64,000 nucleotides of DNA from positions 32,001-96,000 of the forward strand of contig CAVWHO010000021.1 of assembly GCA_963754875.1 (NCBI GenBank). The letters are read 5' to 3'. The notes beneath the pieces were generated by a model. That model made no database searches, was not told the DNA's origin, and saw only the letters and a list, made by a program, of their open reading frames with translations. Shown here piece after piece: positions 1,854 to 25,805 of this stretch (position 1 is its first letter; every line of letters begins with the position of its first letter). Both the position numbers and the translations under genes were made by a program. Source of the DNA: Nitrospirota bacterium (GTDB lineage: Bacteria; Nitrospirota; UBA9217).

Positions 1854-3014
1854 TCAATGTCCGGGGGACGATGGGAGGATGATTTGGTCCGGTGTTACAG
1901 CTTCGACGGCTATTGTATTTACCGAATAATTCCCGAGGCCCGACAGGGGCAAGGACGAACCATACTTCTCCCGAAGTTCCGTTTCCCTGTCTTCGACGCA
2001 GACAATCGCCCGGATCCGTCCTTCCTGCTCTAAGACTGTAATGTGATCCGGATCTTTTGAAGCAGTACTCTCATAGGACGTTTCTTGGCGACACAGTTCC
2101 TCCTGGAGCGCCTTATCGAGGGTGGTTTTGATCGTCATGCCGCCCCGGTACAACTCACGTTCCCCGTAGATGTCCGCGAGCAGCTGTTCAAGAATGCGCT
2201 GATAGCAGGGTCTTCCCTTCACGCCGGTAAACGCAGTGAAATCAAATCTGTCTGTCCCCTCTTGCCGCAGTTTCAGCGGCGCAGCGAGGGCCGCCGCATA
2301 CTCCTCCTGGGTAATGAGTTTTGCCTGCTGCATATTAAACAGGACCCGCTCCTGACGCTCCCTCGCTTTTGCGGGCCTTTTAGCCGGGTTGTAGTAGCGC
2401 GGGTTCGGCAACATCCCAGCCAGCAGTGCAGCCTCGCCTATCGTCAGTTCGGAAGCATGTTTATCCAGGTAATACCGGCTGGCCGCTTCAATGCCGTAGA
2501 TGTTTTCTCCCCACTCGACTTCATTCAGGTATATTTCCAGGATCTGGCGTTTCGTCAGTATTTCCTCGGCTTTCCTGGCAAGCACATATTCCCGCAGCTT
2601 GCGGCTGATGGTCTTTTCCTTTGACAGGAACACGTTCTTTATCATCTGCTGCGTGATCGTGCTCCCCCCGCGGGCGAACCTGTGTTTTTGTACATCGAGG
2701 ACCAAGGCGTCCCAGGTAGCTTTATAGTTCACCCCGTGGTGCTCGAAGAAGGTATCGTCCTCGGCCGTGACAACGGCTTTTATGACGATATCGGGAAGTC
2801 CCTTGATAGGGACCCATATCCTGAATTTGCGGTCGAAATACTGGGTCAGGACATTGCCGTCCTTGTCCGACACTTCAGCCGCTGCTGCAGGCCGATAACG
2901 CTTGAGGAAAGCGACGTTGGGCAGATTGGTCAGGGTGGTTGTGACGAAGACAACAATTATTATAAGGACGAAAGCAAAGAGGATTGCAAGCCCAATGACA
3001 AAAAACTTTTTCAT
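1854..3014 (-). CDS. Peptidoglycan transglycosylase (GT51 domain) without transpeptidase domain
   Basis: N-terminal TM; EDDTFFEHHG, GGSTITQQMIKN, RKLRE, KRQILEIYLN motifs; no transpeptidase domain. Confidence 0.85.
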   Translation of the reverse strand: MKKFFVIGLAILFAFVLIIIVVFVTTTLTNLPNVAFLKRYRPAAAAEVSDKDGNVLTQYFDRKFRIWVPIKGLPDIVIKAVVTAEDDTFFEHHGVNYKATWDALVLDVQKHRFARGGSTITQQMIKNVFLSKEKTISRKLREYVLARKAEEILTKRQILEIYLNEVEWGENIYGIEAASRYYLDKHASELTIGEAALLAGMLPNPRYYNPAKRPAKARERQERVLFNMQQAKLITQEEYAAALAAPLKLRQEGTDRFDFTAFTGVKGRPCYQRILEQLLADIYGERELYRGGMTIKTTLDKALQEELCRQETSYESTASKDPDHITVLEQEGRIRAIVCVEDRETELREKYGSSLPLSGLGNYSVNTIAVEAVTPDQIILPSSPGH

Positions 3015-3023
3015 GAGAGAAGT

Positions 3024-3182
3024 CTATTTTTCTTCATCACGTTTGTGTTCGTGAAAATCATTATCCCTTCTACAGAAGGGCCCGGGGCCTTCTCCTCAAC
3101 CCAAGCCGATGCCCTTGTTGATTCTCCTGACAACAAGTACCACAGCCAAAAGAACAATTGTTATCGTTGTAAAATCGGCCAT
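3024..3182 (-). CDS. Small single-pass membrane protein with in-frame UGA, putative selenoprotein (52 aa)
   Basis: GGAG RBS 9 nt before ATG; MADFTTITIVLLAVVLVVRRINKGIGLG-UGA-GEGPGPFCRRDNDFHEHKRDEEK-TAG; TAG lies just upstream of the next gene start (3014). Confidence 0.55.
3065..3080 (-). promoter_or_regulatory. Putative bacterial SECIS hairpin
   Basis: CCCUUC-UGUA-GAAGGG, starting after a 15-nt spacer from the UGA, GU in apical loop. Confidence 0.5.
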
Positions 3183-3244: not shown

Positions 3245-3802
3245 TTATTTCATTGCAATAATGCTCTTAAGAATCTGCACTGTTTGGGGATCCATCCAGT
3301 TACGCGGGCCAATCACCTTGTATCGTACAACCCCCTGGCGGTCAATGATATAGGTTTCTGGAAATTTGTACGTTCCGTAGAGGCCTGCAATGGACCGATC
3401 GGGATCAAGGAGCACGGGTACCTTCAAATTGTTTTGCCGCATAAACGATGTTACGGCGTTCGCACCGCCTTCATCGACGCTTACTGCGAACATCTCGAAG
3501 TCTTTACCCGAAAACTCCGGATAGAGCTTTGCGAGGAGGGGCAGTTCTTCGACGCACGGCGGGCACCAAGTTGCCCAGAAATGAACCATCACAACCTTGC
3601 CCCGGAAATCTGAAAGACTAAAAAACCGTCCGTCCGGAGCGGGAAGCCGGAACTCGGGCGCCTGGTCCCCGTTCGTGATGATCTTATTCCGCAGAGGCCT
3701 GTTTTTAACCACATACCCTGCGACAAAAAGGATCACTAAAAAAACCAGAAGAGAGAAAAAAACGACCTGTTTTTTGCTGCGCTTCGCTACGCTGTCACTC
3801 AT
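3245..3802 (-). CDS. TlpA/ResA-family thiol-disulfide oxidoreductase
   Basis: N-terminal TM, FWATWCPPCVEE, FPETYIID. Confidence 0.92.
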   Translation of the reverse strand: MSDSVAKRSKKQVVFFSLLVFLVILFVAGYVVKNRPLRNKIITNGDQAPEFRLPAPDGRFFSLSDFRGKVVMVHFWATWCPPCVEELPLLAKLYPEFSGKDFEMFAVSVDEGGANAVTSFMRQNNLKVPVLLDPDRSIAGLYGTYKFPETYIIDRQGVVRYKVIGPRNWMDPQTVQILKSIIAMK

Positions 3803-4045: not shown

Positions 4046-5866
4046 ATGATTAGCGAAATTAAGCTGCACGGGAAAGCTAATGAAAAACTGGATTATTTCG
4101 TTACCATCACCGGCGCAGATTTAAGCAGCCGATACTGTTACGAGTCTCTTCCTGAGGGAGATCGCTTCTTTTCCGGGAGAAATGAGTTCATCATCTACCC
4201 GGATGGAATCAGCTATACCGGGACCGGCGGCAGCCTGTGTGAATACATGTTCGGCGTCGACCTTCCGCTGAAGGACCTTCTGCGGAAGGATGTTTCCAAC
4301 CGTCTCGTCATGTATGGAGCGTTCTATGACAAGTCTGACATCATTACGTTTACCAACAACACTGCGGGCAAAGAATCCTTCGACCACGTTTTTCTTACGG
4401 GCAACGCTGTTTCGAATTACTACTTTTTCTTCCATACGTCCCAAAAAACAGAGATCAAAGACATTCAGCGTGATATCCTGAAGAACATTGGCAAGCAACT
4501 GAAGCGGAGCACAACTGTCGGAGCCGGCAATGATACCCGGCTCTGCAGGGAAGTTTACGAATCTCTTGACGACCCCCGGGCACTCGTATTCCTTTTTCGC
4601 CTGCTCAACCGGCATAACGAAGAATATTTCCGCTCATTCAACAGATTTTATACTGAGCAAAAAACGCTTCTTCCAGAAGCACATGCTTTTCTCGACGACT
4701 TGGCAAAAAAATTCAACATCGTCCCCTACCAGCAGGAACGCATCAAGATCGACGGAATGTACAAACTTCCCGAAAACAAGAAGATCGTCGACGAATACAA
4801 GGACATTCTGATATCCGTATCTGAAAAAAGGCAGGTCAACCCCTCGGAACTTGCTAAGCTCTCCCGACTCCGCACGCTGAGCCTCCGACTCAACATCCCC
4901 CATACGCTTTTTGACACTCTCGACGAGCTTCTTCTCAAGGACACCAATATCGTCGAAGTCGAGGAGCCGGACTACGTGCGGGACAGCCGCGCAATCTTTG
5001 AAGGCCTGTTCTTTCATACCGACAAAATCAAAGGACACATCTCGCAGGAAGACCTCGTTAAGCTCTTAAAGGCCAAACAGAAATCGACCCTCGTCAGAGA
5101 CCAGGCATTCGAAGGCCTTCTGCTCGATACGGTCCGGGCCTGCGATGAACACGCGCGGGACCGCAACGACATGAGCGTTCTCGAAGCAATGAGTTATATT
5201 TTGACGTACTTCGATCGCTATGACAGCACTGCGACAATGATCAACAACCTTGCCTTCATGGAGAACTCGGCGCTGGGTGAAGACAACATACGCAGCATCT
5301 TCGGAAATAAGGAGGTCTTCGATCAGATCAGCCCCGAGCTCTTCCGCGAACTGTTTATCGGCGCGCTCCGGGAAAACCGATACCTGACGCGGTATGGCAG
5401 AAAAAAAGTAGATACGCTCTTTCAGGGGCTCCTGCAGATCAAGACCGGAGATACCACCTATCGCGAGCTTGCCGCTTCCATTTCAAAAATAAACGAAGAC
5501 GACAAAATGTATACTTCCATACACCGTTACATCAAAGACCGGTTCAGGAGCATTTATGCGGAGCTGAATTCAAAGGAAGACCAGGAAATATTCATTCAGG
5601 ACCTGAATCGCGAAATCCAGTCCAAAGAAATTATCCAGGGGCCGGTACCTCACGGCGTGTTCGAAGAAATCATCCTGGATATCAGAAAGGAATCATTTTA
5701 TCTGAACAATCTCCTGCCGCATATCATCGTGTCTCGGGACAATCGGGTGCGCGAAGACTTCCTGATGAACAGCGGTCTCGACCGTTTCTATGTAGAAGAA
5801 CTTGAGAAAGATTATTTTGAAATGAATAAAATCGAAAAAAACATCCTTGAAGAGATAAGAAAGTAA
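4046..5866 (+). CDS. Conserved hypothetical protein (TIGR04442-like)
   Basis: 606-aa ORF; IKLHG start, YQQERIKID, SGLDRFYVEELE recalled from this family. Confidence 0.7.
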   Translation: MISEIKLHGKANEKLDYFVTITGADLSSRYCYESLPEGDRFFSGRNEFIIYPDGISYTGTGGSLCEYMFGVDLPLKDLLRKDVSNRLVMYGAFYDKSDIITFTNNTAGKESFDHVFLTGNAVSNYYFFFHTSQKTEIKDIQRDILKNIGKQLKRSTTVGAGNDTRLCREVYESLDDPRALVFLFRLLNRHNEEYFRSFNRFYTEQKTLLPEAHAFLDDLAKKFNIVPYQQERIKIDGMYKLPENKKIVDEYKDILISVSEKRQVNPSELAKLSRLRTLSLRLNIPHTLFDTLDELLLKDTNIVEVEEPDYVRDSRAIFEGLFFHTDKIKGHISQEDLVKLLKAKQKSTLVRDQAFEGLLLDTVRACDEHARDRNDMSVLEAMSYILTYFDRYDSTATMINNLAFMENSALGEDNIRSIFGNKEVFDQISPELFRELFIGALRENRYLTRYGRKKVDTLFQGLLQIKTGDTTYRELAASISKINEDDKMYTSIHRYIKDRFRSIYAELNSKEDQEIFIQDLNREIQSKEIIQGPVPHGVFEEIILDIRKESFYLNNLLPHIIVSRDNRVREDFLMNSGLDRFYVEELEKDYFEMNKIEKNILEEIRK

Positions 5867-24803: not shown

Positions 24804-24826
24804 AATGCCTCCGGCGTTCTGTTTTC

Positions 24827-24844
24827 AGCAGACGACCGTCTGCT
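24827..24844 (-). promoter_or_regulatory. SECIS-like hairpin of the ArsS gene
   Basis: AGCAGAC-GGUC-GUCUGCU after a 16-nt spacer from the UGA. Confidence 0.7.
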
Positions 24845-25805
24845 ACGCGACTGTTCCCACTCATGACGAGCCATGTCCGGCTGTGCATCCATAACAGTGG
24901 TCGCCGAACGAGATCGATCGGTTAGCCAAAGCAGCGTAGTCGAAATCGTCGATATGCTGGGGCGCGCGGGCAGCGGTTGCAAGCCCAAACACCTGGTTGA
25001 AATCACAGTCGAATAGGGCACCATCCCATCCGACGTTAACTATATGCCGACACATGATGCCGTCCAACGTTCCAGGATTGAATGCGCCTGCAAGTTTGTC
25101 CAGGTATTTATCAAGGTTCCCCGTCCTGACGAGATATTCGCGGAACCTGCCGATCGGCATATTCGTGAACGTGTACAGACGGGTAAAAGAGATGCCGAAA
25201 CGGTCCTTGAGTTCACGCCGATACTCCGTCTCAAGGGAGCACTGGGATGGCGAGAGGAACATCCCCGGGGGATTGTACACAAGGCTCAATGAAGGGCCTC
25301 TCGAATCAATGCCGTAACCCAAACCATTCAGGATCTTCAACGCCTCAATGCTTTTTTTATAAGTACCGTTCCCGCGGATCCTATCGACGCTGTCCTCCAG
25401 ATAATAAGGCAGCGAGGCGATCAATTCCACGCCCTGATCGCGGTACCACTCCGGATACGAATCAAGCCCCCGTTCGAAGAAGACGGTCAGATTGGTGCGC
25501 ACAATCACGCGCTTTCCCGACGTTCTCGTTTCTCTTATGATCGTCCTTAACGATGGGTTCAATTCCGGAGCTCCGCCGGTAATATCAAGCGTCTCAAAAG
25601 GATTTTCCGTCACAGCACGGATCACCTGTGCAGCTGTTTTTTGGTTCATGACCTCCCGGCGTCCCTGACCGCCGGAAACGTGGCAATGTTTGCATGCGAG
25701 ATTGCAAAGGAATCCCGTGTTCACCTGAAGGACATTGAGGTCAATTGCCTTTAACGATTGCGATGAAATTTCGCTGATTTTTTCCTTGAATGACTTCATT
25801 TCCAT
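24843..25805 (-). CDS. arsS: Arsenosugar-biosynthesis-type radical SAM (seleno)protein; UGA at 24863-24861 read as Sec
   Basis: CNLACKHC, DITGGAPE, NMPIGRF, DCDFNQ; C-terminus HCYGCTAGHGSS-U-VGTVA-TAG (Cys homologs end GSSCGG). Confidence 0.85.

Follow-up and report, generated by a model that had tools for sequence, protein, structure and literature searches.

The window analyzed here is the whole 64,000-nucleotide stretch of DNA from a Nitrospirota genome (G000). Its minus strand carries a micro-ORF at positions 3182–3024, located between the genes for a TlpA/ResA-like thioredoxin (3245–3802, minus strand, upstream) and a peptidoglycan transglycosylase (PF00912; 1854–3014, minus strand, downstream). 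The micro-ORF starts with ATG at 3182–3180 and, as read from the sequence, is preceded by a Shine-Dalgarno (SD)-like GGAG (3195–3192) 9 nt upstream of this start; an SD-like motif 4–13 nt ahead of the start was present in 34 of 52 homologous copies. The product would have 52 residues (about 5.8 kDa) if the in-frame TGA at codon 29 (3098–3096), the predicted selenocysteine (Sec) codon, is decoded, and 28 residues if this UGA is a stop. A single helix (residues 4–25; 3173–3108), consisting of a hydrophobic core followed by RRINK, was assigned from AlphaFold2 and hydropathy, and the sequence GIGLG directly precedes the TGA. The frame then remains open for 23 further codons and ends with TAG at 3026–3024, 9 nt ahead of the transglycosylase ATG at 3014. 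Downstream of the TGA lies a SECIS-like hairpin, CCCUUC-UGUA-GAAGGG (3080–3065), whose loop supplies the codon for Cys37 (3074–3072), followed by a charged, predicted disordered tail that ends with the TAG (3064–3024). All these elements were found as the original prediction had described them, including the 15-nt spacer and the G in the hairpin loop, which occupies loop position 2. The plus strand over the same interval contained nothing meaningful. No promoter or terminator was called on the minus strand between tlpA and the transglycosylase start, which is consistent with, but does not prove, a single transcript for the three genes. On the plus strand, a 209-aa ORF without a Pfam or NCBIfam match (904–1533) is convergent with the transglycosylase gene.

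To determine how widely the micro-ORF occurs, a 19-sequence profile was searched against 401 genomes of the phylum Nitrospirota. All of the 52 matches at E ≤ 1.5e-5 fell within family f1, which comprises the same 64 genomes as one Nitrospirota class; outside f1, the best match in the 401 genomes (1.5e-4) was only partial, and no homolog was recovered there. With a 53-row profile, 52 copies were located in 51 of the 64 genomes and in 17 of the 19 genera of this class. An apparent second copy in G000 (C8:188362, E 7.5e-4) had no helix and was rejected as a chance match. Beyond the phylum, the coverage consisted of a protein library and of 26 of the 64 parts of a contig collection, and at least one locus, in a Nitrospirota MAG, was among the matches listed for these parts. 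No relatives were found in viral contigs, plasmids, or the PDB, and word-index protein searches returned only short matches of truncated length. The best ESM Atlas score (0.83) belonged to an unnamed protein and is taken as a lead only. Of the 64 genomes, 13 had no match. Eight loci have the transglycosylase but not the micro-ORF, as a result of at least three separate losses on a quick version of the tree; the micro-gene is dispensable. Decayed remnants were present between tlpA and the transglycosylase gene in two close relatives (L006 and L007), and in the decaying gene (G001 and G011), the start, helix, and hairpin eroded together.

The machinery for Sec insertion (selA, selB, selC, and selD), which the original prediction had proposed to check, is complete in G000: selA, selB, and selD exceeded their cut-offs, selD itself carries a TGA, and tRNA-Sec was found. 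At least 10 recognizable selenoprotein genes are present in this genome, including two FdhA (by motif), SelD, and two ArsS, with further HesB-like, PrdB-like, OS_HP2/DUF1573, UXX-star, and VhuD-like candidates. Of 10 submitted read-through candidates, seven matched selenoprotein-type families, several of them below the cut-off. Among ORF-bearing genomes with at least 90% completeness and at most 5% contamination, selA was present in 24 of 24. The five ORF-bearing genomes without a selA match were all 63–89% complete; the two that were checked also lacked an EF-Tu-level match, and one of them has a TGA-containing selD. Sec use is almost universal in the class, so the co-occurrence is consistent with Sec decoding but does not discriminate. 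Reassignment of TGA to Trp or Gly was rejected, since TGA closes 623 of 1,580 long ORFs (39% of the stops in the genome) and the only tRNA found with a UCA anticodon is tRNA-Sec.

Several other loci were recorded during this survey. One arsS gene lies within the window (24846–25805, minus strand); it encodes a radical SAM selenoprotein that scored above the cut-off, with the UGA (24863) five codons ahead of the stop and a hairpin loop GGUC. The second arsS with a TGA is located at G000:C20:451549–452451. A 118-aa ORF with LUGGC and an 8-bp hairpin (loop GUGC, 22 nt) was found at L106:1–354 (G000:C20:231175–231528, plus strand); it had no NCBIfam match at 1e-5 and presumably resembles a DsrE-type selenoprotein. 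A stand-alone PrdB/GrdB-like gene with UxxC and a hairpin (L107:1–831; G000:C7:164301–165131, minus strand) scored below the family cut-offs. In the few-contig assemblies G217 (C10:284363–285600), G231, and G242, selA was fragmented or partial, likely due to indel errors. Regularly spaced TCCCCGC-GTGT-GCGGGGA hairpins at G000:C8:22268–22900 (minus strand) likely represent a CRISPR array.

In every copy (52 of 52), a single stop codon interrupts the frame; it is a TGA at the same place and never TAA or TAG. The terminal stops, in contrast, are TAG (28 copies), TAA (18), or TGA (6). The original prediction had allowed for homologs closed by TAA or TAG at codon 29, and none of the 52 was of this type; it had also allowed for a misread TGG or TGC. 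An assembly error was rejected on the basis of the 52 copies and of a contig from an independent sequencing run that spans the site with 11 differences, none of them at 3096–3098. The frame downstream of the UGA was open for 21–29 codons, and in 52 of 52 copies it was open over 20 codons (25 expected from shuffles). This openness is weak evidence because none of the 52 copies had a stop in the +1 frame either, and only the +2 frame was closed. Past the hairpin, the tail has a coding signature: the frequency of T at codon positions 1, 2, and 3 was 5%, 1%, and 20%, respectively, A accounted for 64% of codon position 2, and about 57% of the encoded residues were K, E, D, or R, with <2% hydrophobic. 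The ratio of synonymous to non-synonymous changes was 13:21 in the tail compared to 38:30 before the UGA; the tail sequence is weakly constrained. A search of 1.84 billion representative proteins gave 16 matches, of which 14 ended just before codon 29, one was a spurious repeat protein, and one was full-length. The full-length homolog (P0003, 52 aa, E 2e-18; from ENA, on two contigs of at most 2 kb, protein sequence only) has Cys at position 29. The Cys-for-Sec homologs that the original prediction proposed to look for are represented by this one protein: additional protein and metagenome searches gave no further Cys form, and nine metagenome matches with a Cys codon, none of which had the helix or synteny, were taken as chance. 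As judged from sequence conservation, the micro-gene is real, and UGA29 is very likely, though not certainly, read through with Sec.

The hairpin of the query begins its loop 21 nt after the TGA. In the bacterial SECIS model, as described in the accessible part of PMC13188914, the loop has 3–9 nt, the stem 4–16 bp, a G is at loop position 1 or 2, the spacing is 16–37 nt, and the MFE is ≤ −7.5; the query has a 4-nt loop, a 6-bp stem, G at position 2, a spacing of 21 nt, and −8.7 kcal/mol with flanks (−7.4 kcal/mol for the bare stem). The segment from the UGA to the hairpin reached ≤ −7.5 in 50 of 52 copies. Taken alone, the query hairpin did not exceed chance, with folding z-scores of +0.31 to −0.91 and three of four fragments folding otherwise, and a loosely similar hairpin follows 3,614 of the 150,148 TGA triplets in the whole genome. 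The support for this hairpin therefore comes from its conservation over the 52 copies. Of 357 stem cells, 91.6% were paired, compared to 86.1% in shuffled alignments (0 of 500 shuffles as high) and 56–71% in slid ones, and 22 double-sided stem changes were observed compared to 6.5 in shuffles (0 of 500). Covariation at four of seven pairs was not exceptional (56 of 500 shuffles), and the copies are related. The loop G was present in 52 of 52 copies, and the loop started 21 nt after the TGA in 49 copies and 24 nt after it in three. The spacer indels (three copies) are of 3 nt, and the variants with a 5-nt loop have a slid stem and no indel; the reading frame is thereby kept. An intrinsic terminator at this position was rejected, as none was called and there is no U-tract. 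Scans of the whole genome for such hairpins contained too much noise for candidates to be ranked, and a narH-like ORF that they returned was discarded as a selenoprotein candidate.

The loops of the other Sec hairpins of the genome start 17–23 nt after the UGA, so the micro-ORF hairpin matches them in geometry; it differs from them in loop sequence (GGUC, GGUCU, GGU, GGAC, GUUC, and similar). The same applies to the arsS element of the window (24822–24863, minus strand, loop at 23 nt), which the micro-ORF hairpin mirrors according to the original prediction: the geometry agrees, but the loop is GGUC in arsS and UGUA in the micro-ORF.

Loop bases 1–3 form the codon for Cys37. This codon was TGT in 50 of 52 copies and never TGC, against 73% TGC genome-wide, which indicates that its second and third positions are fixed by the RNA. 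The first loop base was U in 50 of 52 copies, across two loop geometries. Since a SECIS here needs no U, this suggests that Cys37 is under selection as a residue. Together with G26 and G28, Cys37 is one of the residues conserved at >90%. However, U-x7-C did not hold up as the fixed motif it was proposed to be: its Cys is the hairpin-loop UGU, the spacing was x8 in three copies, and Cys37 was lost in two of 52, in two independent events on the quick tree. One of the Cys-less copies (L005) has a TTG start codon and two decayed copies as its sister group, and the other (L082) has CNC further along the tail. The U-x7-C motif is plausible, but not fixed.

The location between tlpA and the transglycosylase gene was confirmed at the locus and in most copies: the micro-ORF followed tlpA in 47 of 52 and preceded the transglycosylase gene in 46 of 52. 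The claim failed for five copies located elsewhere (L073:853–1011, L074:3014–3181, L076:3038–3202, L081:3001–3153, and L085:2988–3164), which form a distinct subtype upstream of other genes of envelope type: eptA (two copies), a PF03865-like ORF (one), or an unnamed 142-aa membrane protein (two). All five detached copies retain the helix, TGA, and hairpin. Four of the five genomes, representing only two lineages, have lost the micro-ORF before the transglycosylase gene, and the fifth has both. In G023, the transglycosylase gene has moved away and the micro-ORF is still with tlpA. The TlpA protein has a WCPPC motif and is not a selenoprotein; its motif was CPPC in 53 and CPSC in one of the 54 sequences read, and a selenoprotein TlpA was rejected. 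In five loci from four genera (L030, L031, L033, L049, and L062), selA is head-to-head with the tlpA–micro-ORF unit, possibly with a single origin, and elsewhere the divergent neighbor is mostly a TIGR04442 family protein (4046–5866 in the window).

AlphaFold2 modeled the helix at residues 4–25, with pLDDT 84–89 across residues 1–20, and left the tail unstructured (pLDDT about 43–54; mean 66, pTM 0.36). The median 19-residue hydropathy of the helix was 2.28 over the 52 copies. The net charge of the first eight residues was negative in 48 of 52 copies, and the stretch from the helix end to Sec was net positive in 52 of 52; the outlier in this pattern, L085, has a doubtful start. According to the positive-inside rule, the positive flank of a membrane helix faces the cytoplasm. 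When this rule is applied to the charge distribution, the predicted topology is N-out/C-in, with the tail and Sec in the cytoplasm.

The original prediction of a 52-aa single-pass membrane selenoprotein from an unrecognized family, encoded between a TlpA-like thioredoxin and a transglycosylase, is supported. On balance, we lean toward a membrane selenopeptide with a single helix and a cytoplasmic Sec, which would sense redox state or soft metals and thereby influence a partner protein in the membrane. This reading starts from the observed ORF, invariant TGA, hairpin covariation, coding signature of the tail, Sec machinery, and synteny. Following the bacterial SECIS model, the hairpin would recruit SelB with Sec-tRNA, so that UGA29 would be decoded as Sec, and the helix would insert into the inner membrane in the N-out/C-in orientation given by the positive-inside rule. 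The Gly-rich GxGxG-U-G loop would expose Sec just beneath the cytoplasmic surface of the membrane, where Sec might pair reversibly with Cys37 in a Se–S bond or bind a metal together with it, with the charged tail as a soluble spacer. Through its helix, the microprotein may, in the manner of AcrZ and MgtS, act on a larger membrane protein, for which the operon neighbors are candidates. Read-through, topology, chemistry, and partner are thus the predicted parts. The detached copies are intact, residues near Sec are conserved, and one Cys homolog was found, all of which argues that the product itself matters.

Alternatively, the micro-ORF could be a selenium-sensing leader, in which the main role of read-through would be to deliver ribosomes to the TAG located 9 nt upstream of the transglycosylase gene, so that re-initiation would occur only with Sec-tRNA. 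The arrangement is that of a coupled leader: only a few nucleotides separate the stop from the start of the transglycosylase gene, which has no normally spaced SD motif. Among the 45 loci measured, the read-through stop lies 9 nt ahead of the transglycosylase ATG in 26 and at −4 to +12 in 43. An SD-like motif was present 4–13 nt ahead of the transglycosylase start in 0 of 44 loci (rough background 45 of 149) and 14–22 nt ahead of it, within the micro-ORF tail, in 27 of 44 (rough background 7 of 149). According to PMC10666635, translational coupling weakens sharply as the distance grows and has almost disappeared at about 20 nt, so a halt at the UGA, some 81–84 nt upstream, would uncouple the transglycosylase. 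However, six of the 52 copies have no transglycosylase downstream, one locus has a 180-nt gap, and overlaps of −1 or −4, typical of efficient coupling, occurred in only two of 45. A normal SD was also absent, by eye, at the transglycosylase in the eight loci without the micro-ORF, which makes weak initiation unspecific, and a leader would need neither the conserved helix nor GxGxG-U nor a Cys homolog. We rate the leader, the main rival reading, as unlikely. The two readings can both hold, and a selenium-gated switch that also yields a membrane selenopeptide, tying synthesis of a cell-wall enzyme to the selenium supply, would be conceivable at similarly low probability. The obligatory link to cell-wall synthesis proposed earlier was not upheld, as the transglycosylase gene is missing downstream of those six copies and the tlpA–transglycosylase pair persists without the micro-ORF in other genomes.

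The original prediction had also suggested a redox module with TlpA, in which the tail would be outside and exchange electrons with the CxxC of TlpA. The micro-ORF follows tlpA in nearly all loci and stays with it in G023, but the CxxC of ResA/TlpA-type proteins is normally extracytoplasmic, and nearly all copies have a charge asymmetry from which the tail is expected in the cytoplasm, likely placing Sec opposite the TlpA active site. The helix also lacks a conserved Cys that could pass electrons across the membrane, five copies are detached from tlpA, and tlpA is kept where the micro-ORF is lost. Such a module is improbable.

Very doubtful, too, is a distant, Sec-using branch of PF12669, the family of Cys-rich membrane peptides associated with FeoB, that would bind iron or an Fe–S cluster. 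PF12669 was the only Pfam family matched repeatedly (12 of 53 members, from the helix through the residues up to Sec), and the micro-protein shares with these peptides a length of about 45–50 aa, an N-terminal helix, basic residues, and Gly with a chalcogen residue. Nevertheless, the best E value was 0.034, the query scored 9.3 bits against a gathering cut-off of 27, and the match may reflect merely a helix with basic residues. The Feo four-Cys motif Cx3-5Cx2-3Cx6-8C, as given in the accessible part of PMC8749426, is absent; only U and one C are conserved, with Sec in place of Cys. No feoB was present in the neighbor clusters scanned, and PF12669 had no match above the cut-off in five genomes. 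Least probable of all is that the UGA is an ordinary stop, producing a 28-aa membrane peptide upstream of a conserved RNA hairpin with another role (mRNA stability or protein binding): gene callers do end the protein at the UGA, TGA is a common stop in this genome, and the hairpin itself accounts for much of what is conserved after the UGA (PFCRRD), but this reading is opposed by the exclusive use of TGA at codon 29, the fixed SECIS geometry, the frame-keeping indels, the codon periodicity past the hairpin, the full-length Cys homolog, and the missing terminator-like U-tract.

None of the 53 members reached a Pfam or NCBIfam cut-off, and none matched the selenoprotein models of NCBIfam 20.0 at E ≤ 10; the PDB gave no match. 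As a positive control, the same NCBIfam scan recognized seven other read-through ORFs of the genome, some below the cut-off. Table 1 of PMC13188914 lists 119 bacterial selenoprotein families and subfamilies, none of which, within the accessible part of this source, has the micro-ORF sequence or, by name, its architecture. The micro-gene family was also not described in the literature searched, including the accessible passages of BSepDB (PMC13326102) and deep-Sep (PMC12013277). The micro-gene is thus likely a new selenoprotein family of unusual architecture within a known kind, absent from the catalogues checked. The families of Haft and Tolstoy 2025 are said to be included in the 119-family table. 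A groundwater survey by Deng et al. 2026 (Cell Rep 45:116760) reportedly contains unvalidated new selenoprotein candidates, which could include the micro-gene family.

If so classified, the family adds to the bacterial selenoproteome a member with one membrane helix and no enzyme fold, an architecture not named in the accessible part of the 119-family inventory. Although the family spans almost the entire class (17 of 19 genera), annotation does not see it, because gene callers stop at 28 aa and methods based on Cys/Sec pairs have almost no Cys homolog to work with; it therefore marks a blind spot in current selenoprotein searches. Its small size permits synthesis or heterologous expression, by which the role of Sec without a catalytic fold and the control of the next gene by Sec could be addressed. 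The selenium-gated switch, if true, would be a bacterial Sec-decoding leader gene that governs a non-selenium gene.

The micro-gene resembles bacterial selenoproteins with an in-frame SECIS, as far as these are covered by the accessible sources, in its in-frame UGA, its coding-region hairpin with a G at loop position 1 or 2, the loop at 16–37 nt, the Gly-rich GxU context, and possibly, on the strength of one protein, a Cys homolog. Unlike the listed ones, it is known from a single class, and Cys forms are almost absent. A similar short Gly–Sec motif is found in UXX-star (NF041114 and NF041211; GxGU; about 70 aa) and in the DG selenoprotein (NF049953; GUxG), but these models are glutaredoxin-like or span 172 positions, and they match other loci of these genomes and not the micro-ORF. 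The eukaryotic SELENOK and SELENOS are single-pass membrane proteins with Sec in a disordered cytosolic segment near the C-terminus; in the micro-protein, Sec would lie about nine residues past the helix and depend on a bacterial-type SECIS, so the likeness is an analogy only. AcrZ and MgtS are single-helix bacterial regulatory microproteins, and we know of no microprotein of this type that bears Sec. The AcrZ profile gave one chance-level match among the 53 members. Like AcrZ and MgtS, the micro-protein is small, has one helix with a predicted N-out/C-in orientation, and was missed by annotation.
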